A stretch of 63,524 bases of DNA, filler included, from Stramenopiles sp. TOSAG23-3 (lineage: Eukaryota), in the NCBI GenBank assembly GCA_900128585.1. It is 6 parts of 6 records of this genome, joined end to end, with 100 filler letters (N's around TTAATTAATTAA, not from the genome) between each part and the next. Parts side by side here need not be neighbours in the genome. Positions count along the whole stretch, not along the records: positions 27,517 to 54,756 come from LT642263.1; 5 more parts are not named here. The stretch is one strand, 5' to 3'. Position 1 is the first letter of the stretch, and each line of letters opens with the position of its first letter. The notes under the pieces were generated by a model that worked only from the letters and a program-made list of their open reading frames with translations, did not search any database and was not told the DNA's origin. Shown here piece after piece: positions 31,272 to 56,321 of the stretch. The translations under genes and the position numbers were made by a program.

Positions 31272-34200
31272 TCAAAAATGTTCGTGTTGCAATTCGTACG
31301 GCCAACGAAGAAATCCTTTTCGCGGTCTTTGCGCTTTAATGGGGTGTTGCGGTGATGAACCCGATCTAGGAGAATGCTTTGTTGAAGTGCTTTTATTTTT
31401 GTCTGCTGCTAACTTTTTATTTGAAATTTCCAAAAGATTTTGTGACCATAACAGCTTCTCCTGTTTCACACCATTATTATTTAAACGCACAGTTTTGCTC
31501 ACCAGAGCCTCTACTTTATCTAGTAAAATACGAGGACTGTCAACTTGCTGAAAGTATAATCGCTCTATTTCGCGGTTAAATGTTTCGGGAACAAGGCCGT
31601 CTTGTGGCCCGGGGCGCAATTCGTCTTGAAATGATGGTAAATACTTGCCGATGTTATCTTTGCCATCTTGGGCACTTACTTTCTGGGCGCCGAACTTTTT
31701 GTTTGCGTTTTCAACGTCCTCGTCAGACTCTACACTTCTTGTTGCAAATGTTTTCTGCAGCGATTGTGTCCTTCGTATCCCCTTCAAACCCCATATACCC
31801 AGGTATTGGCCTGACTTGAAAATCAAGATTTGAACGAAGGTACAAACAATTAGCATACCAAGTATTAGAATTAAACCCATTGGGAAGTCATCGAATGGAT
31901 AATATCGCGGTAGTTCGTCTAAACTTGAATACAACATAAACAGAGCATACACTGTTATGATCTGCCCAAGAGTTACGATTGAAACTAGAAAATAAAACTG
32001 CTCTGAAAAGCACATTTGGTGAATCTTCAAGAATGAACTCTGCTCTGCGCGAAATTGATGTGCTTTCGGTTCATTCTCATCGCCCCATTCTGGGTCAACG
32101 TCTCTGAAATTTTCATCCAGTATCCATCTCTTCTTTCTCCCATAAAATTTGTTTGTCATATCCTTTAAATAATGATGAATTTTCATTGCAAAAGCAAATT
32201 CTAAAATATTTTCAACGAATGCGTCAACAATAACCTGAAATACAAAAATTACCACTCCAAAAAATATTGTAATGAGCAAATCTTTTTGACCATACATGGA
32301 TTCTACTTTCAAAAAATCAGAAAACATAATCACTAAAAGAGCAACAGGTATAGTAAACATTTGCGAGACAGTTGCCGTTGAATTCAAATACTGATGCTGA
32401 ATAATTTTGGTCAATTTTTTAAGATCATTAGGTTCCGCTTTCTTTTTGTCTTCTGCGTCATCCCGCTCCTCCTCCACTGCCCATAAACTCTGTAATTTTT
32501 TAATAATAGCAGCATATTTTTTAAAATGTTCTTCCAGCTTCGGCATAATTGCTTGTGCTAGGGGAGACAATAATTGAGTACCAGACGCAAACACTACCAG
32601 CATAATGTAATTTATCATAAATTGCGTAAACGCTACAGTACCCATGGACATTGTCTTGATGATTGTTTCCTGGCACATCCTGTACGGTGCAGTTGAAAGT
32701 CTATCCGGTATTGCCTGGTCCAGATAAGTCAGCAAACCTGCACCCGATACTTTCATTATTAACGAATACAAGGACACGTCTGCTTTGTAAAAAGATCTAT
32801 TGAGAGAAGATAAATAAAGCGTTAGAGAGTTAAAGGGAAAGGGGAGGGAAAACGTGGTTAACGGGGCTAGAAATTTTATTAGCAACTACTTACGTTCGCG
32901 AAATCATTATCATCAAAGTCTGAAAAAAGATGAAGCCTATAGTATGCAGCAATACCTGACTTCTTCTCCACAAATTCTTTTTTGTCACACTATTTTTTTC
33001 TTTGGGCTCTAGTGGGTTTGTTGCATTTGCAGCTTTTATAACAATTATAACCCCCAGCAAAGTGTACGACAGACCCATTCGTCCTTGTTGGGTGGTTTTT
33101 ATCACCATTTCGGAACGTTCACCAAAGTAGTAGACATTGCCGTCTAAAGAATCTGTTAATAGAGGCCCCAAATAATCTTTATGCAATATCATTTGAACAA
33201 TAAAAACTATGAGAAATGTGGGAAGAAATGCATAACCAAACCCTAAAATAGCAGGCCCACCAATTAATGTTATCCCGCTAAGAATTTCCATCTGGGGGTG
33301 TGGGATTACAGAATTAAAACGCTTCGATTTCAGCAGTGCCCACCAAATAGAAAAAAACATCATGGTTATAAGAATCCCAACAACAAACGAAATAAGTACA
33401 TACAGCGGCATCGGGAGGCTAAAGTTATCTAAAAGGCCCATGTAATCCAAATGTCTAAATGTTGTTCTAAATGTGTACTCTAGATGCCGTTGTCTCTCCA
33501 GGTTTGTTCTGGCTGAGGTGTATGCTGCAGAACTCCTGTAGTCAGAGAAATATATTGTTGCTTTCGCAATTTGTTTCCTATCTTCCAATTCTTGCCAAAA
33601 TTCGACGAGCATATGAACAAGTTTCGGGTAAGATCGTGGACCTTCATTTTCTACGGGCTCCGCTACAACGACAGTGCCTGTTCTAATTACTTCCTCGTTA
33701 ATATTCACTTTTGCTTTCATCGGCGAAACGGGAACAGCGTGGTACAGACGATACCGATCTAGTTTTTCGTTTTCAAACTTAATGAGTCGATTTACTTCTT
33801 CGCTCTGTTTTTTCTCGTTGATAGCCGTACCCATAGCTTTTAGCCACCCACCAAATTCGTAGCTTTTCATGGGTTCTCTAGACAAGAAAAAAAGGAATTC
33901 GGGAAAATTGCCTTCAAACCAGTAAGCCCGTGACGCGTCACCAGTTGTGATATCTTCCTCGTAACGGCAATGTAACCGGACATCACAATAATCGGTTAAT
34001 TTCTCCGAAGAAATCAAATCGAATTGGGATGTGGTGGTTGTTTCGTTAGGTGAACGGAATATGCACTGTTCAGAATTTTGAAACAATTTCCAGAGAGGCA
34101 CGTGGCTATCGTAACCAGCACAATTGGATACGTATGGCATGTATGGAAGTGTCACATGACTTAGGCCGCCGGTCCAAAACCCACTCGCAGTCCTCTTTAT

Positions 34201-37200
34201 GTCATCTGGTAACCTGGTCGTGCCCCTTGACACGGGATCATCTGGGCCAAGCTGAAATTCCGATGCTGCAACGTCTAAGTTGATATCATACCCCCTTATT
34301 GATTGGTCGTGTTGTAACGATTTCATCAAGGCCCATTCTCTGGTGTTTTTTGCAGAGTTTAAAATTGATTTTTTCGAACCTTTGTTAACGTAAACAATAC
34401 CATCAATTTCCTTTTGCACCACTAAATCAGGCTTATATGGAGCAGCATCTTTCAGAATTAACGAGCCAAACAACACTTTATGCGGTCCCCTGGATAATTT
34501 GTGCTCATTCGGGGTTAATTCATCGGTGTAATCCCTTGCGTACATTGTAGCAGCACTGTTTAGTGGCTCAGATTCATGCACATAATGGTTGTGTAAATTC
34601 AGGGGCAGTGACCACGTAAATATTCCCGAGTTGTATATCGCAATAAAGCTCTCGTAAATAGTATCGCCAGAAAGCATCGGTACTTGTGGTTGTTCCACCA
34701 CCCAACGCAATGAATTTGAGAACAAAGGAAAAGCATTGCTGTAGTGCCTCCCGTTTAGTACTTCAATTTCTATCAAAATCGTGCAATTACGTCGAGCCAA
34801 TGCTGTCAGATGTATTAACCCCGTTGATGCAAGTTGTTGACGAACCTCCGATGTAAGCCCAAGTTTAGTGCTTCCACCCACTGTGGAAACTTGTCGAGCC
34901 GTTTGAGGAAGGCCGTAACGCTTTACAATATTACCCTGCAGTGGCCCCTTATCATTTGCGCAGCTCCTCGTGTTTGTGGTTGTTCCAACCTTCAGAACAC
35001 GGCACGGCCTCCCGATATCAACGCCCACCGGGGGAATTTCGAATTTACTGCCATCATCTGTAAACATAACGCCAAGCTTTTCACGAGACTTGAAGTGTTC
35101 ATTTTTAATATTTTTACACCACGACAAACACACATCTCGACCTCTTTTTGTTTGCTCAAGACGGTAATCAAACGGGGTCTTAATTCGAATATCGCTGCTC
35201 ATTTCATCGTTACATCTATCCGTGTAGAAGTTGCCACCAGTGCCCCCACAACATACACCATCTGCTTCACAATGTGAATTTAAATCTTCAGATGCCATTA
35301 ACTCTAAGAACTCTATATTCGATAACATGCTATCGAGCCCTGCATATGTATCGAAGCGGGTTTTCTGCGCTGGATAGTCAAAACCGGGTAAATTGTTTTT
35401 CCTGACTTCTTCAAACGACAACTGGTTGTCTTTGTTCTCGTCAAACTCGGCTTTCATGTTTGCCCAATTGTTCCACGGGGACTGCTGCCATTGCATCTGG
35501 CGAACAGTCCTCACTTTTCGCTGTTTGATTTCACTGCCCATGTAACCTAGAGACGTATAACAAGAATCAGCCGTAGTCGTCGTGCACCCGACAGGATTTT
35601 TAGCATTCTCTGGGTGCAATAATTTATCGATCACGCCGTTATCCTCCGTCCGGCCTCCAAAAGGGTCCAATTCTGAATCAAAACGGCACTGATTTGGTCC
35701 TAGAGTTGGCACTGGCACTCCGATAAGGCACCAAGAACAGTCATAGTCATACTGGCACCGTTCCCCAAACACTCGACGCTCCTTCTTTCCACCATAATCC
35801 GAGTCTAAGGCTTTCATTGCGGAATCCCACTGCTCTGTCCAGCGTCGATATGGGAAACTCATATATTCGTCTTGTATATTATGAAAATCAATTATTTCTT
35901 GATCGAATTTGGATGCTTTGTCTTCCGTGCCCGCACCTATACTAGCTTCATATTGGTAAAACGGACTGTACCGGGAGTCTTCACCTAATGCTATTAAAGT
36001 ATCATAATCGATTACCGGAAAGTCGTCCACGTATAATGCTATTCTGTAGTCATTATCGTACACAAGACCACTGGCAATAGCTTTTGAAAAATTAAATCTA
36101 AAGTGAGCAACTTGCAAGGTTTGTATTGCGTAAGAAAATGTTGTGTCTTCAGGGTTCAGTATAGGCAAATTGTCCCAATTCGTTGGAGAGGAAATGTCTC
36201 TGGTGCTGGATAGTTGCTTGTAAGCATATGGGTCTAACTCAAAAGAAACATGGGTCGTGGGGTTAATAGAAACTACACGGTCACCATGAGTCCTTAACCA
36301 GTTCTTATCCAATATACAATCATGAACAGACCCTTTCTGAGACTCTGATTTAGTGCCTGGGGGGCAAGGCACACCAACCCACGACCCGGAGGGGCAATAA
36401 TGGTTCTTAGGGCAACTACTCTGTTCTCTTTGGGTTTTTAGCGTTCCCAGGGGGCAAATAAAATTCTCGGGGCAAACACCAGATTCCCGGGCCTGCTTTT
36501 GAGTAGACTGCTCGTATACGGATCGAATGGTCGAAACTTTTTCTTCTTTCTCAAATTGGACGCTTTTGAAGGTCTCTTGCATACAATTATCTGCCACCTC
36601 TTTGAAGAAGGCAGACCCAGGCTTATCGCCCGGTTGTGTGCCGAACAATATCCCAGAATATGTGCCTAAACCGCAGTAAAAGCCAGCAGGGCATTTCATA
36701 GAATCAAGGTACTCACTCGTACCTGAACTGCAGAGGAACCCTTCCTGGCATTCTTTACAATGAGAAATTTGCCCACTTGGCTGCACTCGTTTAAAGCAAT
36801 CAGTTTGTCCCAAAAGATCGCAAAAAAATCCCGATGGTGTCGACATACATGTGGACGAAGAGTTTGAGCCCGTGAAGGGTAAATACGTTCCTTGTGGGCA
36901 GTCTTGACACCGGACTTCTTTCCCAGTCATCGCATAGGATAATTCCATGAAGCGCCCCTTTTGGCATGTCTTACAGCCGCTTTGGCGCGTTTCGTCATTA
37001 TAGGTACCAGATGGGCAAGTTTGACACTCTTCCGACCCAGTAATTTTGCTGAATCTCCCAGTTGGGCAATCAACAGGAAATGATGCGCCGGCTTTCGGTA
37101 CATGAGTTCCAGGAATCGCAGGGGTTGGATCTGTCGAACCTCTAGGGCAGAACGTTCCAGCAGGGCACTGACCACTTCCTTTTTGTGTTGCGCAGCCAAA

Positions 37201-40200
37201 TTCAATGTATGCTTCGCCTGTGAAAGGGTTGGTTGACTCTGTGCGACATAATCCCACCCCGGGTTGACAGTAATACCCAGGCGTGCACAACTGGGGCCAG
37301 CCCGCCTCTCCCTGTTTGGCACCGTTGAACTCGTTGGTAGAAACTCCCGGGAGACAAAAGGTACCATTTGGGCAAGGCATTGGTCCTTTAAATACAAAAC
37401 TGTGTTCTTCTGCTGTTGCAACTATCCCCAATGCCTCTCCGCTGTAACCAGCATGATGATTTGGATCAACGCCTTGACCAGGAAACCTAGTGTTTGTCCC
37501 TTCTTCACAGTAATGCCCTTTCAGACACTGTATTTGCTCGCCTGAAAACGCCGGAGCGCATTGGGGACAAGAGGGGTTGCACGTCCAGCATATTTCACTA
37601 TGCCGGCAAATGCTGTCAGCTTCAATCCACTGGCACAAAAATGTTTGCCGACATTGGCCTACGTTTAAATCTTTGCAAACAACGGTGGAGCTCGTATACG
37701 CCGGTCCTAAACAAGTCCGTGAATCATCTTCCGCGTCAATAGTACTTTTTCTGACCGGGTATATTTCACAAACATCTAATTGACATATGAATCCAGCCTT
37801 GCACGGAATCCCGTCATACATGCGCGAGTTGGGACACTTCTTCCCGGGTGGACATTTTCTGCATTCTTTTAGCCCAAGGGTAGGACCGTACGTTCCAGGT
37901 GTGCACGTTTGGTCCAATGAACGGCCTTCTGTCGTAGATGCACGGCCCCGTCGCGCATAAGGGGCACTGATAATATCGGCGCCTGTAGTAATATTTTTCC
38001 CAGATGTTATGCCAAGAGCATATGAGCAGCGGATAATTTGGTCAATCGGTATTCCAGGAGTAAGCAAAGAGGGTGGTTTTGTGCCCTGGCAACCAACAGC
38101 AGATTCGTTACGAATACATCGTGGACACTCCAGCGGGCAATTATCAGTACTATCGGTATTCGGGCTGCACAACTTGATGCAATCTAGATGGTTCATTGGG
38201 CACTCGGGGCTGGCGTCCATTTCAACGGAGCAGCTCTTTTCCCCACGATACCAGTCATGGGTTTGGCACATCTTATTCTGTCCGCATTTGAAAAGGGAGC
38301 AAGTTTGGATTTCTGGTAAATCCCGGCCTACGTAGGCGTACAATGTTTGGTCAAACGTTTCAAATATTGATTTTGGAGATGGGCAAAATTGCCCTTTCGG
38401 GCATTTACCGCTTCCTGCCGGAGACGTTGCGCCATATCCACAAAAAAAATTTTGTAAGCATGGCTGTGGGTAACTATATTGTGTAAAATCGACTGAAACC
38501 TTCAGATTTACTTTTTCCGATGGTTCTGTTACAGGAGGTGGAAATGTTCTCGGGGCTTTGTCGTCGTCGGCATTATATATACTTGTACAAAACTGCCTTG
38601 TTGGCTCTGTTATATAAGAATAGTCTGATCCACTGACCTGTATTTTGTACTGTTTTGTTACCGAGTCGCAGTTTTTTCCATCCAGTGAATATTGACCCTC
38701 TTGGACTCCCCACGTGCTAACATCTCCCTGGGTTGAAGCAAACACCGCAAAATATTGACCTTCGTAAGACGCACGAAAAAACTGTACTATCTTACCGCCT
38801 ACCTTGATTTCCTTCAGATTATTAACGGGGAGATCTTCTTCCCATTTATCGTTTGCTCCACCAACTATACATTCCGTGGGGCGCGGACAATTTTCGTACG
38901 CGTTCCACTTCGCTACACCGGCAAGACAAAACACACCTGGGGGGCACTGAATTGGACCACCGCATTTCTCAGATTCACACTGAAAATACAAATGTCGTTC
39001 ACTCCGTAGTTCTAGGAACGCAAAGTCAACCCCATGATTAAAAGGGTCGTAAAATGCTATTTTGTCTTGTACATCGGGATAATCTTCCTTATTAACCATG
39101 GTAATTTTCGGGAAATATTTCGTGCCATCAGAGATTGCACAGCCGCAAAACTGTTCGGGGCAAACTAAAGAAATATTAAATATTCGAGCCGGTTGATAGA
39201 AATACATAACAATCTTATTTGACAAAAGGTTTCCCCCATAATTGATTGCACTAGCAATGATGCACTTCTCATTCGGCAACTGAATACTTTTGGAAACATC
39301 TTCCCCGGCAAAGATTCTATCAGACAAGGGATTGGAATAATGCAATGTGATATGTTGCATGAAGTTGAGATTATCCCCAAGAAAAAGTGTAAAGTAGGCA
39401 TCGGAAAATCCTGCGCCTGAGAATGCACTCTCCAAACTCACCGTCTTTGCCTCCCTCGTCAGTATTCCATGGGATGATATGTGGGGAACATTTTTTGACA
39501 TAATGGAGAAGTTCATTTGTTTCAGGCATTTATTTCTAGCGCGTTGCTGGGAAGTGCAATGGATTGCAGACAAAGGTCTAGCAGGACGACCGTTTCGAAA
39601 TTTTAGCACAAGAGTGCGATTTTTTTGAGTTGCATTCCCCTGCCATACTGTATCCCGCACTAAGTAGGGGAAGCTTTCCTTCAAATGTTGGTATAACTTG
39701 GTTGACGAATTGCTTAGTGCACAGGGGCTAATGCAAGAATTGCTCTGGAGTCCTGGGTACAATAAACGAATATCATCCATCTCACCGCAATCAAAATTAA
39801 TAGGAATAGTCTGCTCTAGCACGAGCTTGATAATTCTCTTTCCCGCATCAAATAGCTTTGCGTTTAAAGCGTGGACTAAACACGTACCACCAAACCCACA
39901 TGATATGACGGATCCTTCGGCGGCAGTATCAATTTGATAAATTCTGTCGCCTGCTTTGAAACTATGGTACCCCAGGAAAGAAATATTTTGAATAGACGTT
40001 ACTGTGGATATGAAAGCTCGCCCAGCCTCATCTACTAATTTAATAGGTGTCGTAGGCGGCAATCCTGTTGACCGGTTATATAGCTTTACAACCGTGACAT
40101 TTCCGTCTCTGTTTGAGATATTTTCAACGTTTTTGCTCTCCCACCTTTGATTACAATCTGCATGTACCTGCAAGTGAAAACTTTTATTCCTTTGTATCTC

Positions 40201-43200
40201 TATGGTGTGACTCGTTCCGGTGGAAAGGGGGGGAAGAGATAAATTACTCCAATATCCGGATTTTACCACAGTCTCGTTATCATTGCAACTAGAAAGACGG
40301 ATATCGTGCGAAAATGGTGGCATTGCAGAGCCTATTAGTATTCGTTCCCAATTTAACATTGACTTCTCTATAGCAACAATAGCATAAAATTTTGTTCTTC
40401 CTAATTTAAAAATATTTGTTGACTGTAACAAGCGACTGGTCATACACTCTGTTGACCTCTGCTGGGAGTCTACAAACTTGAATGACCCAGTCGTGGTACT
40501 TATGTTGCTTTCGATCATATACGGCGCAGATGACACACATTTTGATTGAAGAACATCTACTTTGTCATCTTTATTCAAGGCGTCTATCATCTCAGAAAAC
40601 TCCGTAATTCGTGGGTCGCAATTCGGAGGTTGTGAAAAAGAAAATGTTGTAACAGGTAGCACGTTAGGGGGATCGATTATATCAATGTTAATTATTCCAT
40701 CCGGCTCTTGCACAGTCACGTCTACATTACTAATATTAGGCAACGATAGCAGGTGATTTTTTAACTCTTCAATATCTATGTTCGAGCAAGATATTTTAAA
40801 GCACGCATGTTCCCCTGTCGGCGTAACGTAATGGCTAATGGAAGATTTATATCCAAACCGCATGTATGGTTTTGATGCGTCACACTGAAAAATTAGACGC
40901 GTTTCGCCGATCACTATTGGAGGGGCGTGTGTTGCTTTCTTTTGCGTAACCCTTAATTCAATATGGTAAAGTGCATGCATAGAGTCAAAAAAACGCCTAA
41001 TGCTACCAAATGTTCCTTCCATATTTTGCATAGACTCAGCCTGCACTGTGACGTTGTGGATATTGGGGAAAACATCTTTCAACGCATTTGAAATGTTCAT
41101 TTGTCCAGCCCCTGTTCCTAAATTTACATAATCAATGCATGGCGATATATGTTCCTTTTGCCGCAAATAAAACTGCCCCGTGTTGCCCACAAATAAATTG
41201 CCGTCAGTATGAAACTTAATTTGATCGGTCCAAAAAGAAATTTTGTGAACATTTTTGTGCTTTGCAATTGGGCTGGTTGACGAAAATATATCAGGGGCAG
41301 TGACCACATGGACATCAAATTTTGTATAACTCGAAGCGGCATAAGATTTAAGCACGTATCCCTCAGCGCTTACATTATCCGCCCCTGGTTGCACTAAGAA
41401 ATCATCAACTTCCAAAAAAATAGCATGACTGAATACAACACTTTGAACAATTGATATCGAGTACTCGAACGCACTATTAGGCACAGTGGAGTTATACGAG
41501 TAGAATTTTATTCTGTTGCCAGTTGCAACGATGCTCTTGTAATGGGGCGAATTTCGACGTAGCTCGTTCTGTTTTAAAGTTGCAATACTCCTTTGTCCAC
41601 TTAACCTGTCTACCGTTTTTACTTCAAAATTATGTGTGCACGATGCGAGGCTAGACAAATATAGAATTTCACCTGTTTGCACAGGTTGCCAAAAATTCTC
41701 GGGTAAAATGCTGCTGTTGTTCCTGTTAACAGAGTCAGGTGTGTTCGAGACGCTGTTTCGTCGGAAAAACTGCAAATTTCCTGAATTGTTGCTTAATGGG
41801 CGAACGACTAATTCTCCAGGTAGGTATGAATTTCTAGATTCTTGAAATTCTCCTTGAAATAACACATTTTCAGACAACAGGGCCCAGAGTCTTCTTTTGT
41901 CGACAAAATATTTGTTGTCCCCTAGAGCAAATCGTGATCGTACAGGTGGAGAGGCAATAGAAATAAGTCGGCTATGGCCATCATCATCAGACACATTAAG
42001 AGGCCACCCTGTTCGAAACGTTTTTCCTTTACTCACAACGTGAACAGTATAACTGCATGTATTATTCACACAAGCTATCGCGTTCACAAATCCCTCCGCA
42101 CTTGTTGCAGGCTGAAAAATACGAGCGTTGGTCTTTATCCAGTTGGAGTTCAAGATATCAAAGCGAAGCACATGAGTCAATTCAAACGTATTCAACATAT
42201 TGTAGTTGGCAAAAAACTCTCCTTCAACCATAACTTTGCACGAGCCTTCGCTCTTTTCTATACTGAATGCATCCTGGTCGAACAAAGTCCCTCTACCGTC
42301 GATCTGAAGTACTGATAATTCACCCTCCTCAAAAGCAATTTGTGTAATTTTGTCTCCTGGCAGACAGCAGTCACGGTGATCTTGGCATTCTTTGGCGTGT
42401 GTGCCAGAGACGCTCGCCCCCACAAAGTTAGCGTTGACGCACATGCGAGGAAGTATACACGCTGGTTTGAAACAAGCAAAAGAATGAAACGGAAATTTAC
42501 AGCATTCGAATTTATTCAATTTTTCTTCTGAGCATTCTTGAACACAGCAGTCTCCCATGCTGCCGCTCGATTCTAACTCGTTAGCATTGCAAGACAAGTC
42601 TGCGTTTCGTTCGCAACAAAACGGCAACTGCCCTTTACAATCTGAGTCCAATCTACAAGATTTCCCGTGGGTTATGCCCCCTCGGCAAGTGCCTTGACGA
42701 TCCTGGGCCAACATAGTCATTAAATCCATAGGCTCGCATGTGTGTGACCTGCACGGCGTAAGAGTTTTTCTGCCTTGGGGACAGTAGTGACCAGCACTAC
42801 ATGGAGTTCGTGGGAATGTCAGGTTTTCGGCGTTGCAAATGTACCCCGGGGGGCATGTGACAGTTGAAACAAGCCCAGTAATTTCACTATTATCAGTAAA
42901 TACTGCAGGACAAATAGACCCAATTGGACACCCTTTGCAGTCTTCCCTTCGGGGCACATCATTATATGTGCCGGGTTTACACCTTACACCCTTAATTTGC
43001 CCCAGTGATGGGCATCGATTCCCTGCATCGCACGCAACCCTTCCGAGTTTTGCAGGCTGAAGTGATTCGTATGCAGGACAGTAGAATCCTTTTGGGCACG
43101 CCCCCTGCCCCTCTGGCAACGAGGAGCCCCGTTCACATTCGAAGCCGGAATAACACACATTTACGGCCCCATTAGTAAAACTTCGTGCCCCCGCATCTTC

Positions 43201-46200
43201 CCTGGAAGAAGTGGTTCGCATACGACAATAAAATTTGTCTGTACACGAACAGGGACGTTTCGGACTTACCTGAAAAGCATTGGATTCACAATATTGTGGA
43301 AGTGTAAAATCAAGGTTATTTTGGCGAAATTTTTTTACCTGATCACGTATACTGAGACCAACTTTTGCCGTCCCTGTACCATCAACATCAACATAATGAT
43401 GCTCAAGTTCTCCGGAAGGGTCTAACCAACCTTCCCATGGGTGTGTCTCGTATGACTCTTGAAAAATCCCATTCATCAATCCAATAATTTTGTTTTTCGA
43501 CATTTCTGACGCAGTCCCAACCGGGCAATAGTGCCCCGGCGGGCAGAAGTTTGTTGCCAACCTAGACCCAACTGCCAGCTGCAGTGATGGTACTGAGATT
43601 ATTGAATCAAAAAAACGCGATTCGCCTATTTGTACATCTGGATCACAGATATATCCTGCTGGGCAATCTTTTGGGGTTTGCATTCCAGCAGTTTCACATA
43701 TTTTCCCCTGGGGGCATGCATTGCATAAATACTGCCCTTGCAATTCTTGGCTGGTTCCAGGCGGGCATTTTACAACCCTACCCAAGGTAAATGGCTCGAT
43801 CATCACGTTGAAATATATCCCATCTTCAACATCTGGGGCTGAAAATGTTACTGAATTTTCGCTGAAAGACAAAACTCGCAATACCTTCCCCTGCAGGTAA
43901 GACTCTGTACGGCTTGCAACTTGTATTTGCATACTCATACCTACCGATATACCCAGGGAACCGCCGTTATTTACCATTGTTGCGGTCGCAATGCCACCCT
44001 GCGTGTAAAGCCGAGGGCTTTGAATTTCTTTCACCGGGCTATCGACCGCACCATCCGCTGAACACATACTTCCTTTCCGGCATTCACGTTGTGCGTGCGC
44101 AATTGCATAGTCGGGAACGTTTTTCAGTTTGCAATTAAAGCCCGCAGGGCACGAGCGAGCGTATAACACTTTGTTTGAAGTTTCCGCCTCCTGATGCTCT
44201 CGCACACGCCCATACCACGACGGAAGAAAAAATTCGGTTCGGTTTACCTCCTGCAGAGGGTTCCACTCAAACTTTGGTGAATATGGAGACGAGCCACAAA
44301 CAGAGTATAGTTTCTTATCTAGCTGACCAATAAACGCAGGCGTCGAAGATCCTCCAAAAACGCATCGAAAGTCTTTCTTTTGAAACATTAAAACGCCTCT
44401 TTTTAGGTACTTTTTGGATTTCCATGTCCGTTGGGTATGGATTACAAACAGACTAGAATTATTTGTGGCGGACTGTCCAATTTTGTAGACGATCCCATTC
44501 TGCTTAAAAGCAACGTAAGAAAACTTTCCTCCTTGATATAAACCTGGGATAAGATCAAAAGACGCAAGTGTAAGCTCGTCTCTAGCGTCATTTATATCCT
44601 CGATTACATGACGTCCCTTTAGCGTTTGAACAGATATACTGCCCCTGAAAAGCACCGGAAGTGCTACACAATTTACAAGGGTCGATTTGTAGACATTGGA
44701 TGTAACAATCAAGTACTTATTTAGGCCTTCCACTACAGAATTTGGTACTCCAAGATCAGAAGGCAGAGTTACGATCGGTTTACTGGCTGACGCATTTCCT
44801 GACCTACAGGCGCCATTTACAATGGTGAATTGTGTCTCAGTAACCTCTGTTTTGTCATCCTCACAGTTCCCCCTTTTCCCAATACCTTCAAAAATTAGTG
44901 GAAACGGCCGGGGAGGTTGTACAAACTGTATGAGCAGAGTTGTCCTATTGTTTTCCTCTGAACGATTAACGTTAACCTTAGAAATGTGCTTAGAATGCTC
45001 CAATATTGCTTTAATCGAACTGTCAGATGCTGTTGTATTTGTGCATTGCAAAAATTCTTTGTCGTACGATAAACGATACCACAATACCACATTACTTGGG
45101 AAACTAATGGTCTGGTTTTCGGTGCCATGAGCAAACGAACCCTGTCCATCATACTTCACTTTGACTGTTTTGGTCTGGTCGACTGGACCTTTGCCAAATA
45201 TTACATCGTGGTGTGAATGTCCTCGATGAGACAAGCGAACATTGTCAAAATCTTCAAACTGGAAAATATTCAGAGAGTACTGGTCCAGGCATTTGCTCAC
45301 TTTTTTTATTTTATCACCTACGATAAGCTTGTACTGTGATAAACCTTTTTGAGGAAGCACGCTAGTGACCCGCACCAGATTTTTAACAGTATCGCCTCTG
45401 ATTGCGCGCAAATGTACGGTCTTAGAAGCAGCGAGGCAAAAGCTATGCGAAGGTTGAATGAAGTCTACATGAAAGGGAGACCAACCTATCGGAAAATAAA
45501 GTTCGAGAGAAAAAAATCCAGTCGTAACGTTTCCAAGATGTGTAACTCTCGATAACCCGTGTTGTGATAGAAATCCCATGACGGATTCTTTGATAGCTTG
45601 CATGTTCTGATCAATACTTATGCAACGACTTAAAGTGCCATTGAATTTAATTCGAAAAGCGTCAGGTTGTACAGGTTGCACGTTGCTTGAAAAATATACA
45701 GTCACTTTAGGCGAAGACGAAAACGCCAATTCAACCTGGTCCTTTGCGTTGAAGCGCCCTTCCAGTGGCACAACACTTATACTGGTGCCTTGTTGGTCGG
45801 ACAGGACCAATCCGACTGCAAGAGAGTTAAATTGGCGCAAAATTGAACCACGTTTAAGATACACATTCTTCATTCCTGATAGAATCACAGCACTAGAATG
45901 CATGAAACCGACTTGGTCAGAGCAATTGGTCTCATCCAAACAATGCTCCCACGTTGTTGAGAGGTGTGAGGCATTTTGCAACCTAAACCTCTGCCTTAGT
46001 TTCAAGTATTTCTTATTCGATTTAAATGACACTTGACACAATGTAACTGGAAGTTTCAAGTTAGAGCACGTAAGCTTTAACCGTTTCTCAACAAACAGGG
46101 ATTTCAGCAACACGCCTTTAACGGACAATACCGGGTGTTTGTATTGTAGTACTGTCATTTTCTTATCGCAATACGGCTGCTGCACACAGGTCAAAAGGAT

Positions 46201-49200
46201 AGTGCTTCCAATTGGGGCTGACAAGTTCGCCTTAGTTTGCAGGGTTAGTTTGAGCGATTCTTCCTGCAGAGCATACGTCATAACATGTATTGGTTGGATG
46301 TTGTCACCCGTGTTCATATTTATTTCTGCGCCTTTCTCAAGGTTTGCTTCAGGAGCGCTTAACTTTATCCGCGCTTCTGTAGCTAACTCCGTTGCTACTT
46401 GCAAGGCTTCGGTGTGCTCCCCGTAATCCTTTGCTCTTACATACAGCCTATAATTCAAAATTAATACAGCAAATATGCTATGGTTTTCTAATGTGTAGTT
46501 TCTAGGAATGTACTCCACACGTTTCGTTACGGTAACACAACTCGATGTGAAATTACTGATCGTGTATACATTGTTCAGTACAGAGAGTGTAGAATTTTGT
46601 AGTGAAATGGTTTTTCCAACCGCTAAAACGGACACGTTTAATTTACGTGAAAAGAACATAATTTCCCTTGCATTCACATTTACTTTGAATACCATATATC
46701 GTTCTAATCTTGTCACTGTTGCAGTATAGGATTGATTGAGATCTCCACCAAAAAGCTTAATACGGTCCCCAATCTTAGGCATCCGAACCCGTATTCCAGG
46801 AAATCGAACAATTACCAAAATTTGAGAATGCGAAAGCTCGTGAAGACTTACATTTGTGGAAATAATGGCGATATTATTTACATTAACGGCGTCGGAAAAT
46901 GCATGAATGTATACAGGTGCGTTAGCGCCATAGACACTTTCTAGTGCTTCTCCATGTGCACTTACATGAATAACTCCAGTACAATGGTGGTCCAAATTCA
47001 CGTTGCAAGGTGTATCGAGGAGCGATACATTCTGAATGAAAACTTTCTCATTCCAAGCGGGGAGGTGCACGTACCCACAAAAGCTTCCATCACAGTTCAA
47101 AATTACCGTTTGGTGCCCGCCAAATTGAAATTCTATGCTGTCCGTACGCTTTAGCAACCCCTCAGAAGAATTCAATGCTGTAATAACACCATAAATACCA
47201 TTGACTGTTTCATTCTTGATCCCAACAAATTGAATAACAGCACCAGGACTTGGAAGTGGCGCTTGCGATGAAACTTCCACGACTACTACCCCGTTACCGT
47301 TTTGGACATACATGCTGAATATTGTTCCCAAATACGAGGGATTTAATACGCGCATAATCCCTCCGTATGCGAGACCCGAGTCTCCATAGTATCCTGGTAT
47401 CAGAAAAATACCGTTGCACAAGACAGTTTTACCCGTCAAATCTAACGTTGCTAGAGTTCGTGTATCGCCTCCTGAGAACTTGGCGACAAAACGAGTATTC
47501 TCAAATACTTTCCCGCCCCTGTACAGTCCATATGTATTGGGACTCTCTACCGATATTTTAAAGTGCATGCCACTGACCAGATCAACGCCTACCTTTAAAT
47601 CGACGTTGTGAGACCATACCGATAAGGCACAATTAAGGAAGGTACCGTTGTGTTCAGATACACGCATTTCAGGACTGACTATGCCACTAAATTGGTTTGT
47701 ACTTGGTACTTCCGACACTATCACCAGCAGCAAACTCGTGTAAGGGTATTTTGCATTTTCCATTTTTGAAGCGCCTAGTTCTATTTTCACCTGGTCATCA
47801 GGCACCAGAGCCATGGGTCGGTCCAACTCGCATGTTAAAGTGGTACTAGATAAATTGACATGAACACAAGTTGCAGTAATAGCCTTTAAAAGGATAAACT
47901 CGTGGGCACCAGTATTCTCCCCTTCTACAGCGATTTTGTGCTGACCTTCCAGGAGAAGAGACAACACACCAACCACAGTATCTGGCGCCTCCGTTTTGAA
48001 AGCAACAACTGCATGCTTCCCGACATGTAATCCATTTCCAAGTGTTACATGAGGTCTTCCCTCTTTTATTTCAACGCTCTCAACTGAGTCTCGGCACTCT
48101 TGCGCGCATATGTATGTGATTTGATGAACGCCATTTAGGAATCGCTCAGCATCTGTTATGGTGATGTAATCGTTTACCTTCGAACTTATATGGGAATCGA
48201 TGTAAATAGTGGCGATTGAATCAGTAAGCAAAATTTCGGAAATTGTTGCACGAAATAATTTTTCGACAGAGAAGCTATTGTCGAAAATATCAACATTCAT
48301 CGTTGATTCGTGAAATGGGCATTTTATGCCTGGGCTGGAAAGTACTACCAAATAATTTCCATTGCTCCAATTTTTGTAAGATAGGAATGTGGCATTGCAA
48401 TGAAATATGTCCTCATTCATGGTAAAAATTGTTTGAACATGACTTACAGAATCTGGGGCACTCAAAATTTCAACAAACTGTTTATCTTTTGCTGGTTTTA
48501 AGAAGCTGGGAGTATCTGTTACTGCGAATGCATGATCCCTGAGAATATAAAATTGCTTAATCCGAGTAACCTGCGATCTACTGTAAAAGTTGGTGTTTGG
48601 TCGTTTTGCTGGATCCCTAATTTTCAGCGCGGTATAAATCGCGGTGCCAGATGGACCGAATGAATTCGTAAAAATGGTCGGCGAGGATATCGAATAAAAA
48701 CGCACAGTTCCCAGTGCCGAATTTGATGACTCTGCTTTTTTTGGGCACAATGAAGTGGCGTTGCCGGTGCTCGATATGTGTTGACATGACAGTCTGACAA
48801 TAGAATTACTTAACCGATGTTGAGTTTCAAAAGCAATATGCAGGTGCCCCATCATTATTTCTGTAGATACTTCAATTGAAACGATTTCATCCGAGTGAGT
48901 GAGACCTGACAGATCTCTCCGCAATATATTTGATATATCTTCCGCAGTTGAATATTCTTCAAACGAATACGATTTGTTCCAGATGTAATGTGGATCATTG
49001 GAACCAATTTGATAGCGAAGAGAAAATGTGTTGTTCGTGTAAAACTCTTGAGTATAAGTTTCCGTTATGCGTGGATTATGGACAAAAAACTGTTCTAACA
49101 GTTCTATGTAGTTACCCCCAGACTCAGAATTGCAACTGACGGCACTACTGAGTTCATTATCCATTGTTACTACCGTTATCGAAGACAAATTATTCACGGC

Positions 49201-52200
49201 AGCGATTGTGTATGGCCCAATAGTTTGTCGATGAGACCCACACATTCCTACAAAGAACGAATCGCCGACCTGGGGGTTAATGGTGGTAATAAACGCCCCA
49301 ATTAATTTTTCTTCATCTCTACTCGAGAAGGAACTACCGAGTAGAACAAAGTCAACCTCTGACAAAATCAGTACTTCAAATCCTCTTGCCGAATTTGTGT
49401 ACACACCAGACGAATTTCCGATATAGATTATATTCCCATCTTCAAATTTGTGCTTAAATTTCGTTCGCAAAACTAGAGGGCTAAAATTTACTACCTTCAA
49501 TACTTCGTGGTAACTGTAGTATATCAGAACACGTCTCGTAAAATTCATAACCCTAGTTAAAGTCCAGGAGTCTGCAACGGTCACGTTTAAAACGCCCTCG
49601 TCTTCGGAAAGCAACAGGATAGAAGTTGAATTGATTGCGTGAATAGCGAAGTCACGACCATTTAAATGAGGAGCACCAGGAGCGTTTTCCAGTCTCACCA
49701 CATCGCCGGCAGTCAAATTGTGTGCAGACACAAAGATGACAGTGGGAGGATTGCCCCAGATGAGGCTCAAAATTTCCATCTCATTTCTCTGTAAAGTCGT
49801 AAGAATATTTTTTACTTTTGCTTTCACTTTCCCAACAATATTGAAATTTTCATTAATTTGAAAACGTTTTTGCATTATTTTTACAAACATTGTTTGTCCC
49901 ATTTGCAACGTTGGAGCCCGAAAAGATTTAGACAAACTAATACGGATAAAATCTTTGAAGAAATGAACATTTTCGACATCAAATAGACCACCCGCAGATT
50001 GAAGACTTGGAGTTACTGAGAAAGGGACAGGGGTGCTCCATCCAGGATTTTGAACAACAAACCCAGCACCAAATTTCCCATGGGAGGTTCCAGGCGGGGT
50101 TTCTAAGTACACACAATTATCGGAAGGACCGAACGACAAAATACGAAATATTCGATTAACCCGAAAGTCTACAGAACTTGAAACATAAAAATAAGAACCA
50201 TTCGCTAGCTTAACTCTCTCGAAATTGGAAGAAGTGAATTCTAGGACAGTAACATTTGTCTGTACAGACATAGCGGAGAAAGGAGTTGATGATTCTAAAC
50301 TGTGCTGCAGCATAATTGATAAATCAAGTTTTTTGGATCCAATGGAAATTCTGCTAAATCGACTCCTTGTAAATTTACACAACAAATTACTATTACTGTG
50401 CCAATACGAGCTGTCAGACAGCAAAACAATGCGCATTTCCCCAACTTTCATATCACGATTAGATGATACTTTACCTGTAGAAAAGAAAAAGTCTACAAAG
50501 GATCCCACCCAAATAATTGTGTGAAACCCTGTAAAAGCAGGATCATTACCAGCGTATAGTTCTAGTTTTGATCTTGGTCCCAACACACCAACAGACACGA
50601 CTCCTCCATACATGGTGACATTAGAAATACTCTCTCTTGATTCAAATTCGATCTGAAACACATTCAAATTTTGAACTTTCTGAACTCGAAATGCCCCGTG
50701 TATCCTGTAATCTAAAATTTCAAGATATACCAAGTCCTTCTCGAACAGCACTATTGGCATTTTTGTGGTTACAACAGCAGAATTGGTAAGTTGGAAAACC
50801 TCGACGGAGAATATTTCCACCGATACAATCGGGGTTGCTGTCTGGAAACTCACTTTTAGCATCTTTATATGCCCACCAAAGAAACCAGAGGAATATTTTC
50901 GATCCCCTTCCTTAACAACTAGTGAGGATTCAGAGAGGACCTCTTGAACTTCGTGATAGGATGTTGCGCTCCCTGGTACATATAGCATCCCTGTAGTATA
51001 GGTACCATCTGGCATGAAAGGCTCGCTTTGCAGCAAAACACTCATCTTCCGCACCAGAAGAACTTTATACGTGCCTCGGAGACTAGATGAGTTCAGATCC
51101 ACTTCCAAATCAAGAAATTTTGAAGTCTCAGCAACATTTAAACTGCGCAGTAATGTTACATTGATCAATCCACCTGATAAAAATACAACTTTGGATTTCA
51201 CACCTTCGTAAAAAGTGGTAACTTCAAGAAAATCCCCTGGTAAAAATGTTTTTACCGCGGCATGATGAAGCTTAATCAAATTGCTCCCCGGAACTTTAAA
51301 CCCATTCTTTAATGTTGCCAAAACAGATGTAATACTAGATATTTGCATCCCCTCTTCGGTTGCAGACGTCATTCTGCAAATTGTGTTTCCGTTTATGTTG
51401 AGTTTTGTGTTACCCACAACAGCTTTGCATGCATTTAACGACGGTTGAACAGGCATTAAATCCACGGAACTATACAAAAACAACTTATTTCCTGTTACAT
51501 TTTGCACTCTGTACATCCCATTAATTTCCTTTTCGTGGCATGCAATTATCTCCATTCGATCGCCGATATGTACGTTTAGAGGCGTCGCAGTGCTCAATGA
51601 AATAATTTTACAAGAACGAAAGAGAGGTGATGCACCCGAAGAGTTAGAACAAATTACCTCGATTTGTTCGACGAGACTGCTCCGTCCGAAAGTCACATTG
51701 ACAAAGGTGTCCTCAGAAAGAGGTGAGCTATCGGGTTGAATTGACACGATTTCTGGTTTGTTCATGATAGACAATGTCACCCTCTGCCCGGAGTGCAGAG
51801 AGCTGTGACGACCCGACCAAAGATCACCTAAGTGTCCGCCGCCTTCGATTCCGTCATTTATAACGTACACAAGATATTTTGCTCCAGCTACCAGAGACCT
51901 TGAAATCGTACAAACTAAATTTTCAGCCGATTTGTAAATTGCAGGCAGTACAATTACATTATCATGCATCCCACTATATTTGGACTCCAAAACGCAATGG
52001 CAATTTGGAGAAAATCCACTGCCGGAAACAGAAAAATCGGTGCGAGTCCCAGAGTATAGAAAGGATGGTGAAATACTGTGCACAGTCGGAATGAGAAACA
52101 CTCTATATTTTTGAGAGCATAATAAATTTATGCACACTACCACAAAACTTTTTGTTTCTCCAACAGTTTTTGTACTTTTGTCCAAAATGCACGTAAGTTT

Positions 52201-54756
52201 AAATAATTGGGTCACGAGTGTGACGTTTCGGCATCTGCTCCCTCCAACAAATACGTGCAAAAAGTGTGCATTTGTGCCAAAATTTTCGCCGTATATTGTG
52301 AAATTTCTCTCCCCTGCAGTATACACAAACTGGTCTGTATAAAATTGACCCTGATCGACGGGCACAAGGCCCGCCTCTACTTTGCGAATAATGGGCGCTT
52401 GGTATTTCAAAACTGACCCCGAATGCAAATTCGTGTTTCCGTTCAGTGGATATAGAGTTTTGTGTTTAAAGTAAGCTGATGAAACGGATATCTTTAGGCC
52501 TTCACCCGAGCGCGGCGGCAGAGAGCACGAAACGGCGCATACATCAGTGCTCAGCCAGTTATAACCGATAGGCTGCGTGAGAGTTGTTATGACATAACCA
52601 TGCCCATTATTTTCTAGATCACCCGGAAATGCCTCTTTAATTAGGAAAGTAAAAGGATTTACAACTTCATACACTTCGTATAGCTTTCCTACTTTTTTGA
52701 AATTTGTTTCGTCTAGAAATGATATTTGAGCTCCGTCCTCTAGTGCAAGTGGAGATCCTCGGGTAGTCACCAATGTGGCATTCTTGTAGGGAATCATGGT
52801 CTTAATGGCCCTATATTTATCACCCAAATTACGATTTTTTGGTAGTTTCTTGAGAAGGCATCCGAGGCTTGTTTGCAGATCTTTGCATTCCCGCAGCCCA
52901 ATTTGAACGGACATAGTTACGATAATGGAGCCTGTGTTATACATGGTGTACGCAGGCGATGAAGGAACCAGTACTGTCACCACGGTAGGGTCAGCCGTCA
53001 CATTAGTTACGGTATGATCACCGTCTAGTTGTTTTTTACCCGAATCATATATCCTAATTTTTGAACCATTCTCAATCTTAAGCGGATTTATCAAGGTCAG
53101 CTTGGCCCGCCCATTTCTCACAGATATGGTTTGAATCCCACTTCTCTTTCCAGGTCGATATACCCACCCACTTTTGGCTTTTAGTTTTGACGGGTCGTTC
53201 TCATTTTTAAAGTGCTTCATATAAACTGGCCACAACCTTCCACCGATAATAGGAGTGTCACAATCTGACGCAGAGCAAATACGCGATTGTAATAAGATTG
53301 TAGAACTGTCAAACACTTCACTAATAACATACGTTCCATTTAGTTCCATGTAAACCGAATGTTGAATTTTCACTACGTCACCAGCGGTAAACGGCAGCTC
53401 ATTCCCTGCAATTGTAATTTGGGTCTGCATCCCGCTGGCGTCTAACTGAATTATGGAAATATAGAACGCTGGAATATTAAAAGCGAAGACTTTGTCTGAA
53501 ACTTTCTTCGAAACTACCCATACATCATTTAAAAATTCCATGGGGCAATCAGAAACTGATATTGAATCTCCTTCATCGACAATGTCACCCGACACAAAAA
53601 ACCTCGCCTCTGCTACGGCTGAAAAAAAGAAAATTGTTACATTCACAATTTTAACTTTTTCTCCCATATGAAAGGGGGATCCCAAAAGCACTAGCGTATC
53701 ACCGCCTTGAGGGTTACATACTATGTCGTTTTGCGCCGGACTAACTGGATCCAAACGCCCGTGCAAACAATTTAATGTATGGGGAAGGTACTGGTGTGAC
53801 GGAACGACGGCTTGGCCTTTTGAAAACTTACTTATTCGATGCATTCCATTAATATATGGCAAATGTACAAACCTTTTGATTTGCAGTGTGCAGCCAGACA
53901 GCAGTGTTGGTATTATTGTATTTTCAGAGGCAGTAATAAGCACCGTATTATTTGTAAAATTGTTGTTGTTGCGAACGACAGCATATCGACCGTTGAAAGA
54001 ATAGTTATTGCAATATTTGATTTTCACGAAATCTGTATCGTTTATTGGCGTGGAAAAGCTCATTGCAGTATATAAAATAATTTTCTGACCACCGGTAAAT
54101 TCTGCATGCATAATTTTTGTTTCCAGGTCTGCACATCCAGAAAGCTCGGCGTGCATACCCCTGTAAAAGCGCCGTTTTCCTTTAATTTTCAAGCTCATGT
54201 ATTTACCAGTGGAAGCGACATGTATGTTCCCGTCCATATTCAACAATGGGATTCCAACTTCAAGTGAACCTCCCCATATCGTCTCTTCAAACGGTGCCGC
54301 CACATTCAGCGTTAAAATGGAAAATGCGGTCACTGTCGCGCAAACTTGGGTAGAGTCCCGATTGAAGCAGCGAAACGGATTTGCAGAAGCACTAAAAGCA
54401 TAGAATGCGGCATTATGCGTGAATGTGCAGATTGCAGTAGAAAATGAAATTGAGTTTTTAACAGCTCCACTATGACGAAATGTGATATTTATGCAGCTGT
54501 CTCGCGGTGCGGATACTTGTGCAACGACATACACCCCATTTGCATATTCACTACTACAATTACTCAATGTAAAATAGTCTTCCAGTGTTATTTTGATATC
54601 CCCGCATGCAAACACAGTTCCGTTATCAGCGTCTATGTTGACAATTGTGCCTACTTGTTTGAGTAGTCTAGATACATGCATAACGGTGGTCTGTACTCCA
54701 TTTGACACCATAATTTTATCGCCTTCTTGCAGCATGTACGACGATACTCCCAAGTG
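31272..54756 (-). CDS. Giant (at least 7,795 aa) multi-domain, multi-pass membrane protein, CRMP-like; exons 54756-32894 and 32796-31272; 5' truncated
   Basis: The 7287-aa ORF joins the 537-aa ORF in frame through a GT-AG intron (...ISRT|SFYKAD...). Contains GDxVxI...LNGxYxV beta repeats, IPT/TIG domains, many CPxGxYCPxG repeats, EF-hand-like DENKDNQLSFEE and about 9-11 hydrophobic segments at the C-terminus. Confidence 0.9.
32797..32893 (-). other. Spliceosomal intron (97 nt) in the giant gene
   Basis: Donor AC|GTAAGT, branch CTCTAAC (32827-32821), pyrimidine tract, acceptor CAATAG|; removal fuses the two ORFs in frame. Confidence 0.92.
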
Positions 54757-54856
54757 NNNNNNNNNNNNNNNNNNNNNNNNNNNNNNNNNNNNNNNNNNNN
54801 TTAATTAATTAANNNNNNNNNNNNNNNNNNNNNNNNNNNNNNNNNNNNNNNNNNNN
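54757..54856. other. Artificial contig linker
   Basis: Same N-TTAATTAATTAA-N spacer. Confidence 0.98.
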
Positions 54857-55759
54857 CGCCGGCGGGGACGGCCCCCGCCGCGGCGTTGCCCTCGTCGCGC
54901 CACGTCACGACGTCCATGCCGCTGTAGTTGACGCCCAGCTTCTGGGCGCCCCGCCGCGGGCTGCGGCCGCCCGTCCTTCGCGCGGAAAGGATGGTCCCGT
55001 CCGCGCGGTCGAATCGAGCGCCGGCGACCCGGTCGTGGGTGACGGCGGCCTCGGAGGACTTCAGCGCGTCCATCAAGTCCTTGTACTTGAACTCGCACGG
55101 CGTGGTCCGCAGGAGGCGGGTCAGCGCGGGCGTCTCCACCACCCCGACCGACAGCAACGATTGCCGGAAGGCCTCTACACTGCATAGGCCGTTGTCGAAC
55201 CGGCTGTACAGGTCTGCAATAGTACTAGAATTCTGCCGAACCGTCTTCTTCTGGGGGGTGTCCCCGAACCGTTCCATCTCCAGCGCGTGCTCCACGGCCC
55301 GGTTCACGTTCGCCGCCGCCTGGGGGGGCGTCATGGCCTGGCCGGGCCCGGCGGCCGGGTTCCGCTGGACGGCCGGGGGCTGCTGCATTCGCGCCGCATT
55401 CTTCTGTGCTTCCAGCGCCCTCTTGTCTTCGAAGTCCTCGACGAACCGGGAGTAGTCCACGTACCCTTGGGCGTCCGTTTTGCACCCAAGCATAACTTCG
55501 TCCACCACCGGGTGGCCCAGCTGAAGCCCCAACGAGTTGATGGCCTGCTGAAACTGCTGCGCATGGACTATAAATCTACGATTGGTCGGAATCTTTCCAA
55601 GGGCTACATAAAATGGTGAAAGAGAAAGAAAGACGTTAGTGAATGGTCGAAAGAGGGACGAGCGAAGAAACGATAGAATATGTATACAGAGAAAGAAAGG
55701 GTCGCCGAAGACGAAGACGTACCGTTGATAATATCCTCTTTCATATAGGAAGCCTCCAT
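54857..55759 (-). CDS. EF-hand-like protein, 3' truncated; exons 55759-55723 and 55603-54857
   Basis: MEASYMKEDIIN|ALGKIPTN... after removing a GT-AG intron; degenerate EF-hands (KTDAQGYVDYSRF; RFDNGLCSVEAF); GC-rich codon usage. Confidence 0.7.
55604..55722 (-). other. Spliceosomal intron (119 nt)
   Basis: Donor G|GTACGT, branch CACTAAC (55641-55635), pyrimidine tract, acceptor TGTAG|; joins the ATG exon in frame. Confidence 0.85.
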
Positions 55760-56321
55760 TATTCAAATGCAATGTATAAATATAACCACGTTATTCAATT
55801 AGCAATGAAAAAAAATCCAACAAGAGAACGACAGAAACGAACAAAAACGCAATGAAGAAGTCAAACCTTTCCGTTGTTCAACGTTCACGTTCCTTTTCAT
55901 TTCCGTTTCCCTTTCCTTTCCATCTCTTTCTTTTGTATAAAATTGCACAAAATCACATTTTTTTGGTCATAAAATTTTTGGATCCAAAATTCAAATATCT
56001 TCATAATTTAAGGAAACCCTTTTATTCTTTATGTAACTATACTGTTTGTATTCTCGTTTATCTATCTAAAATACTTATCTAATTCTATTATCATATTAGA
56101 GTACTAACATTTGTACTTTCTTATCCTAAAATATATAATACAAATAACGTTGGAATGTAAATTTTCTAATCCAAATTGAAAATGGTTCCTACTGTGTTCA
56201 TTAAAAATCGTTTTTTTTTAACCGACGGTTTTAAACTAAATGTTTTCTACTTTGTTAATCATTATAATATTTTTTGTCTTTTTTTTTAGATTTTTAGATT
56301 TTTAGATTTTTACTTAGATTT

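Follow-up and report, generated by a model that had tools for sequence, protein, structure and literature searches.

A highly diverged, putatively FCCH-type module recurs in the N-terminal half of a giant expressed membrane protein of Stramenopiles sp. TOSAG23-3

The window analyzed here, a stretch of 63,524 nucleotides (filler included) from the genome of Stramenopiles sp. TOSAG23-3 (assembly GCA_900128585.1), consists of six parts of six records joined end to end, and one of these parts, LT642263.1 (positions 27,517 to 54,756), carries on its minus strand a giant gene whose product bears, in its N-terminal half, a recurring module with similarity to the FCCH (first catalytic cysteine half) domain, Pfam PF16190, a small barrel of ubiquitin-activating E1 enzymes. 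The gene comprises two exons separated by a short spliceosomal intron (Table 1) and encodes a protein of at least 7,794 amino acids (aa), counted from the contig edge: position 54756 is the end of the contig and not the start of the gene, the true 5′ end of which lies outside the window. As the window is made of joined contigs and an artificial linker occupies 54757–54856, features across that linker are not truly adjacent, and an open reading frame (ORF) at 54801–55772, considered as an upstream part of the gene, was ruled out since it sits on another contig beyond the linker. The joint from 32796 to 32894, at which 97 bases are left out and whose ends are CT..AC on the plus strand, was present in four of four marine metatranscriptome runs (four studies). 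RNA contigs of the runs X10 and X13 covered all 30 bins of 31200–51199 with the intron as their sole joint, and the stretch 31200–36000 was detected in 20 of the 24 listed runs, from 12 studies; the labels of those runs denote marine or seawater metagenomes and metatranscriptomes, save five with a coded organism name and three without a label. Because metatranscriptome contigs carry the intron joint, the gene is transcribed, spliced, and eukaryotic, and because the transcript occurs in marine RNA libraries of several studies, its host is a widespread and probably uncultured protist. Judged by hydrophobicity, the product has three hydrophobic helices in aa 7119–7285 (at aa 7119, 7168, and 7267) and four in exon 2, which ends in a charged tail, with none before aa 7119. 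An earlier note, made from the sequence of this stretch alone, had called the product a eukaryotic membrane protein, and the spliced GT..AG intron, these helices, and the eukaryotic character of the neighboring genes (SRP68, a Kelch protein, a Rab GDI/REP, a protein kinase, and Piezo) bear this out.

The recurrence of the module is evident from motif counts as well as from profiles. An NG-type motif, defined as [VILMF][NDS]G.[YFHW].[VIL], occurs seven times in the N-terminal half of the ORF (aa 1–3644) and not once in the C-terminal half (aa 3645–7287), and none of 1000 shuffles of the N-terminal half reached seven (mean 0.53, maximum 4). A composite pattern, in which a GD-type strand is followed after 6–14 aa by the NG-type strand, gave the same counts of seven and zero (shuffle mean 0.05, 0/1000 reaching seven), with the proviso that it was composed after the data were seen. 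An iterated hidden Markov model (HMM), seeded on the motif sites and applied with a threshold derived from shuffles, retrieved nine modules, at aa 53–82, 223–272, 269–320, 441–490, 547–595, 1047–1096, 1670–1716, 2179–2225, and 2488–2536. When each was left out of the profile in turn, the seven non-adjacent modules scored 2.2–23.4 bits, scores that were reached by zero or one of 50 shuffles (3700 aa) in every case; the anchors had been picked by motif, so these scores include selection, and for the adjacent modules aa 223–272 and 269–320 the test lacks independence. Selection did not extend to the GD-type strand or the flanking hydrophobic strands, and these line up nonetheless. A sliding scan of the whole protein with the nine-module profile added five loci above the best of 150 shuffles (16.6), at aa 331–450, 631–750, 2611–2790, 4861–5010, and 6631–6750, two of them outside the range 43820..54756 to which the array had first been assigned. 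The module count is thus nine robust copies and about 14 detectable ones.

Identity between the copies is 10–28%, and at the DNA level no repeats were found, with zero rows from Tandem Repeats Finder (TRF) and zero families of direct repeats; because of both, the array must be old, as the earlier note had supposed. The five peptides quoted in that note are all present in the translation of the minus-strand ORF, and the two coordinates given for them fit (aa 455–480 at 53314–53391 and aa 1679–1708 at 49630–49719). Its claim that a degenerate module recurs holds beyond chance by the motif counts, the composite counts, and the iterated HMM, with its figure of well over a dozen copies lying at the generous end of what the profiles detect. 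Ten further segments picked by eye (aa 1150–1262, 1318–1392, 1393–1447, 1497–1571, 1590–1655, 1748–1826, 1824–1897, 2290–2390, 2800–2880, and 3588–3664) failed the profile scan and are not counted. In one place two modules form a close pair (aa 223–340, window 53734–54087): they lie only 48 aa apart and seem to have one strand-like stretch in common, which could reflect strand swapping or partial nesting.

Table 1. Features of the giant gene and its product, with positions counted along the window
Feature	Position	Strand	Evidence or remarks
ORF	32890-54753	minus	7287 codons; translation
Exon 1 of giant gene	32894..54753	minus	7286 codons + 2 bases; frame open to contig end 54756
Spliceosomal intron	32797..32893	minus	97 nt; GT..AG; GTAAGT donor, ..AATAG acceptor
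Exon 2	31272..32796	minus	last base of split codon, then 507 codons + stop
Artificial contig linker	54757..54856	.	N run, TTAATTAATTAA, N run; six-frame-stop
Module aa 36-114	54412..54648	minus	HMM; leave-one-out 12.4 bits, 0/50 shuffles; motif retained in P0014
Module aa 223-272, first of close pair	53938..54087	minus	HMM
Module aa 264-340, second of close pair	53734..53964	minus	HMM
Module aa 437-514, second individually FCCH-like; GG-type last strand	53212..53445	minus	HMM; leave-one-out 23.4 bits, 0/50 shuffles
Module aa 543-616	52906..53127	minus	HMM; leave-one-out 5.5 bits, 0/50 shuffles
Module aa 1043-1118	51400..51627	minus	HMM; leave-one-out 14.9 bits, 0/50 shuffles
Module aa 1664-1740, most canonical FCCH-like	49534..49764	minus	Pfam, phrog_584, viral HMM, hhalign
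Module aa 2175-2252	47998..48231	minus	HMM; leave-one-out 2.4 bits, 1/50 shuffles
Module aa 2484-2576	47026..47304	minus	HMM; leave-one-out 2.2 bits, 1/50 shuffles
Weaker module aa 383-438	53440..53607	minus	profile scan, windows aa 331 and 361: 23.3-23.5 vs shuffle maximum 16.6
Weaker module aa 653-727, without NG motif	52573..52797	minus	windows aa 631 and 661: 22.5-22.7 vs shuffle maximum 16.6
Weak module-like stretch aa 2640-2765	46459..46836	minus	profile scan 16.8-18.8 vs shuffle maximum 16.6
Weak module-like stretch about aa 4905-4985, between Cys-rich blocks	39799..40041	minus	18.1-18.6 (nine-module profile); about 19 (viral FCCH)
Weak module-like stretch aa 6631-6750	34504..34863	minus	profile scan 19.0-19.6 vs shuffle maximum 16.6
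IPT/TIG domain aa 812-864	52162..52320	minus	Pfam PF01833, E 5.5e-7, 29.9 bits, above cutoff 20.9
Cys-rich repeat block 1, aa 3530-4030	42664..44166	minus	BLASTP to P0004-P0008; cysteine counts
Cys-rich repeat block 2, aa 5380-6150	36304..38616	minus	BLASTP; contains ephrin-receptor-like repeat aa 5899-5935
Conserved juxtamembrane and first transmembrane region, aa 6843-7272	32938..34227	minus	BLASTP E 2e-25 to 9e-16

The remainder of the protein is built differently and has relatives of its own. Cysteines, counted per 500 aa, are concentrated at aa 3501–4500 and 5001–6500, and the chain has many N-x-S/T sites. Only one domain, the TIG domain of Table 1, reaches the Pfam cutoff of PF01833, and the modules do not. 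The ephrin-receptor-like repeat at aa 5899–5935 falls just under the cutoff of its family (PF07699, E 1.2e-4, 22.3 bits against 23.1), and by BLASTP the Cys-rich blocks align to proteins that carry PF07699. By the same method both blocks are common to all five giant proteins compared (P0004–P0008), of which the best relative is P0004, the 7627-aa hypothetical protein PybrP1_009425 of Pythium brassicae. The conserved region at aa 6843–7272 aligns to P0004 (E 2e-25), P0006 (E 1e-16), and P0007 (E 9e-16), while P0005 matches the C-terminal region in part only (aa 6788–6967, E 6e-11) and P0008 has no match there; against the sequences of solved structures, the C-terminal 1120 aa and exon 2 gave no rows or chance rows. 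Read by eye in the translation, a second short module type, seemingly of mixed helix and strand, recurs between the barrels and the Cys-rich blocks, at aa ~1915–1985, ~3030–3100, ~3215–3290, ~4390–4560, and ~4990–5050 (window ~39600–49010), and has no Pfam match.

The N-terminal half stands apart from this wider family. A search of the half against giant proteins gave no relative, BLASTP gave no alignment of aa 1–3530 to P0004–P0008, and the module HMM finds no copy in these five proteins. When aa 1–1200 were compared with 1.84 billion representatives, 10 matches were returned: four fragments that are 93–100% identical, one distant homologue (P0014), and the rest matching in the TIG domain only. 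The homologue P0014, a protein of 547 aa from a metagenome contig, is collinear with aa 9–543 at 23% identity, keeps the module motif positions, and is the single true homologue of aa 1–1200. For aa 1200–3644, the search among shorter proteins yielded only near-identical fragments (98–100%), and the cluster look-up within these homologue searches gave no names. Within a wider giant-protein family, the array seems to have been added at the N-terminus in one lineage only. Among the fragments, P0009 (190 aa, from a short contig) matches aa 184–315 at 98% identity and has unrelated ends on both sides, a pattern suggestive of a short assembly that contains frame errors or a variant transcript.

The most canonical FCCH-like copy is the one at aa 1664–1740, hereafter the canonical module. 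In a scan of 2500 aa it matched Pfam E1_FCCH at aa 1676–1711 with E 5.8e-4 and 20.3 bits (18.7 bits when scanned singly), and at aa 1669–1718 it matched phrog_584, annotated as major tail protein, with E 3e-5 and 24.9 bits over profile positions 30–78 of 218. The Pfam match, together with the universal presence of FCCH in eukaryotic E1 enzymes, would suit an origin in which the FCCH domain of the host's own ubiquitin-activating enzyme was duplicated and the copy entered a gene for a surface protein by shuffling and diverged afterwards. Against it, the score is higher with the phage-family profile, and one would not ordinarily expect a domain of a cytosolic enzyme to end up in a secreted array; this origin strikes us as highly improbable.

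Beyond single hits, the comparison was extended to whole profiles with a viral FCCH set of 82 stretches from IMG/VR, where a second scan showed that 561 of 600 examined pattern matches encoded a relative. The viral profile itself matches the solved FCCH domain of UBA1 (2lzj/2v31, E 2.8e-7) and phage tail proteins. Used as an HMM, it scores the canonical module at 12.5 bits, where the best of 100 shuffles reached 2.1, with the other modules not above noise. Aligned by hhalign, the nine-module profile and the viral FCCH alignment reach a probability of 81% and a score of 32.9 over 67 of 91 columns; when the canonical module is removed, the alignment still spans 65 columns in the right motif order, at a probability of 43% and a score of 26.7. 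Both scores lie above those of all 60 column shuffles, whose maxima are 15.2 and 20.4, respectively, and reversed profiles give 10.2 and 7.6. TIG served as a further control, for beta repeats in general: 29 TIG repeats gave a score of 9.5 with the nine-module profile, and the score between TIG and viral FCCH was 10.3. Taken singly, the canonical module aligns to viral FCCH with a probability of 86% and a score of 33.5 (shuffle maximum 14.0), and the module at aa 437–514 with a score of 22.3 over 70 columns (shuffle maximum 15.0). In a protein-language-model atlas, two non-overlapping fragments point to one and the same viral E1_FCCH cluster (0.92, 0.91) and to Phage_tail_3 (0.91, 0.90). There is thus whole-domain profile similarity to an FCCH-type barrel in the wider sense, phage tail FCCH included, and the likeness of the modules to FCCH, judged from their sequences, appears moderate. 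These results also bear on the notion that the modules belong to a small, lineage-specific beta domain unrelated to FCCH by descent, one or two copies of which look FCCH-like by chance, the GD...NG...GG pattern being a general trait of small barrels with tight turns. The ordered alignment that persists without the canonical module, the low TIG score, and the agreement of the two fragments on one viral FCCH cluster all argue against such an independent domain, which we consider unlikely.

The nearest named relatives of the canonical module are tail proteins of phages. With this module as the sole query, tblastn of phage genomes matched 201 records with E 0.03–10, for the most part minor tail proteins of Mycobacterium phages along with a set of Xanthomonas phages, the best being a 463-aa tail protein of Xanthomonas phage MET23-P3 (UEW68391.1; E 0.03, 32% over 53 aa); the matched stretch of this protein is a bona fide E1_FCCH domain (Pfam 41.8 bits), and phrog_584 positions 18–97 cover it. 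The atlas neighbors are likewise mostly viral, and the weak rows of a Foldseek search of BFVD with a predicted model were phage tail or baseplate proteins and two giant-virus proteins. All of this accords with the idea, close to the one put forward in the earlier note, that a virion module was captured from a phage or a protist giant virus and amplified to bind bacterial surfaces, for example in prey capture. Yet a query of 2750 aa returned no phage match by tblastn at E ≤ 1, an IMG/VR scan with aa 437–1897 gave no relative, the best phage match is as distant as stated, and FCCH is also a cellular domain, being found in UBA1, UBA6, and UBA7; we therefore judge capture from a virion to be distinctly improbable. 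A metagenome scan with query A3 likewise gave no relative. The FCCH query also drew in a second phage repeat family (IMG/VR loci L006–L010), marked by HG...G..V and ..YYV..VT.NTFQ motifs, which scores 24.0 (probability 22%) against the protist module profile and so may be a sister barrel family.

The reading that we favor, and to which we give somewhat better than an even chance, is that of a giant expressed membrane protein whose N-terminal array of FCCH-type barrels serves as the spacer of a receptor or adhesin. The modules would most likely be six-stranded FCCH-type beta-barrels of 70–80 aa, highly diverged and spread over about 3,600 aa; among them lie one or more TIG domains and further short domains. 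After two Cys-rich ephrin-receptor-like blocks and the conserved juxtamembrane region, the protein would end in some seven or more transmembrane helices and the charged tail. Like beads on a string, the barrels would form the far end of a surface receptor or adhesin that is held off the membrane, and the string might make many weak contacts with surfaces or glycans. The Cys-rich blocks, the TIG domain, and the many N-x-S/T sites are the grounds on which the array is, putatively, placed outside the cell; a signal peptide is not visible since the 5′ end of the gene lies beyond the contig edge.

A number of results weigh against this reading. The homologue P0014, whose initial Met aligns to residue 7, lacks a hydrophobic leader. 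No module reaches the PF16190 gathering cutoff of 29.5 bits, the best being the 20.3 bits given above, and just one of 11 modules scanned singly gave any E1_FCCH match (E ≤ 10). Of 23 segments aligned to viral FCCH, two are clearly above their own shuffles and 16 are not above them at all; the remaining five are marginally above, one of them aligned off-register. In a sliding scan with the viral profile, only the loci at aa 1664–1740 and 437–514 beat every window of the C-terminal half. The nine-module profile gave chance-level rows only against PDB sequences, hhalign against a single phage protein reached a probability of 7%, and the 'recognition' values of the two atlas fragments are low (2137 and 1822). 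The modules were moreover first chosen by a motif that the reader of the sequence had drawn from FCCH, which favors an FCCH match.

Structure prediction adds to these points. An AlphaFold model built with 14 paralogous rows had a predicted local distance difference test (pLDDT) score of 48.3, and a second one, of aa 437–514 with 66 viral FCCH rows, reached a pLDDT of 64.8 and a predicted template modeling (pTM) score of 0.55 with four strands only; because the viral rows guided this second model, it does not count as independent evidence. Foldseek returned no match at E ≤ 0.001 in PDB or BFVD (best E 0.55 and 0.066, respectively), its weak rows comprising ATP-synthase N-terminal barrels, endosialidase barrels, SlyD insert domains, and phage baseplate barrels. 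Among the matches listed (50 per list), no chain was an Ig or FN3 domain by title, with the second model being the viral-guided one. As predictions, the AlphaFold and Foldseek results favor no fold and exclude none. The FCCH likeness that the earlier note had proposed from recall accordingly stands at the level of sequence, through phrog_584 and hhalign, and found no counterpart in the fold comparison, where the models were poor and the matches not significant.

What emerges is a domain type that is already known but stands here in a new setting, namely an expressed giant membrane protein of a eukaryote; in a literature search confined to FCCH and phage-tail terms, no publication on arrays of the FCCH type in surface proteins of eukaryotes came up. 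The giant protein is a candidate for cell-surface recognition, and its relatives indicate that a conserved receptor chassis, consisting of the Cys-rich blocks and a multi-pass anchor, can bear quite different distal arrays by lineage. If its distal half is indeed built of FCCH barrels, this small domain would serve viruses, bacteria, and eukaryotes alike as a general component of their surfaces. A bolder scenario, which we regard as very doubtful, is that the outward-facing decoration barrel of a tailed phage or giant virus was taken up by the protist and multiplied at the tip of a giant receptor, with which bacterial prey would be caught or sensed; if true, an adhesion module would have passed from virus to host and been joined to a giant-receptor chassis of greater age, whereby the weak contacts with glycans or surfaces through which virions hold on to bacteria would come to serve a eukaryote.

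Elsewhere in the window, three observations may be recorded. An ORF at 3397–4548 (minus) has a strong Pfam match to LpxK, the lipid A 4′-kinase (E 2.9e-45), amid otherwise eukaryotic genes, and could be an organelle-derived gene of the lipid A pathway or belong to a contig of other origin. At 18843–19448 (minus) lies a Piezo TM1-24 fragment (E 1.3e-8), which adjoins further ORFs, including 17523–18641 (minus), and together they are probably one multi-exon gene for a Piezo-type channel. The stretch 20001–24000 has a GC content of 0.54–0.58, compared with 0.33–0.47 in most of the window, and holds the Rab GDI/REP-like ORF and an ORF without a family.

Among known systems, the giant TIG and ephrin-receptor-like membrane proteins of oomycetes and other protists are alike in giant size, TIG domains, Cys-rich blocks, and, except in P0008, the C-terminal region; they differ in that their N-terminal parts bear TIG-type Pfam domains and lack the modules. 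Solved FCCH domains are those of UBA1 (2v31/2lzj), UBA6, and UBA7. Compared with FCCH in E1 enzymes, the modules are below the Pfam cutoff, are far more diverged, stand outside any E1 context, and occur in many copies per chain, and their structural match is tied with unrelated small barrels. The beta-barrel of phage endosialidase tailspikes (PDB 4hiz, 1v0e, 3gvj) offers a fold match no better than the other ties, and none of the modules had a Pfam match (E ≤ 10) to an endosialidase barrel family.

The best sequence matches of the canonical module are the FCCH decoration domains of phage tails, both those of the tail tube and those of the podovirus type, such as MET23-P3. Outward-facing decoration domains of phage tails are usually interpreted as spacers or as multivalent weak binders. 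In siphoviruses, tail tube proteins consist of PF08813 with an N-terminal FCCH (phrog_584; PDB 9l0f, 9jlf), the FCCH domain being an outward-facing add-on of the tail tube (PMC13576161). The tube domain itself, PF08813 (Phage_tail_3), has no Pfam match in the giant protein, and the phrog_584 match covers the FCCH part only. Phage proteins carry one FCCH per subunit, fused to a tube or tail domain, whereas the protist protein strings 9–14 copies together in one eukaryotic chain; as an add-on that faces outward (PMC13576161), the phage domain has a placement like the one that we propose for the protist surface array.

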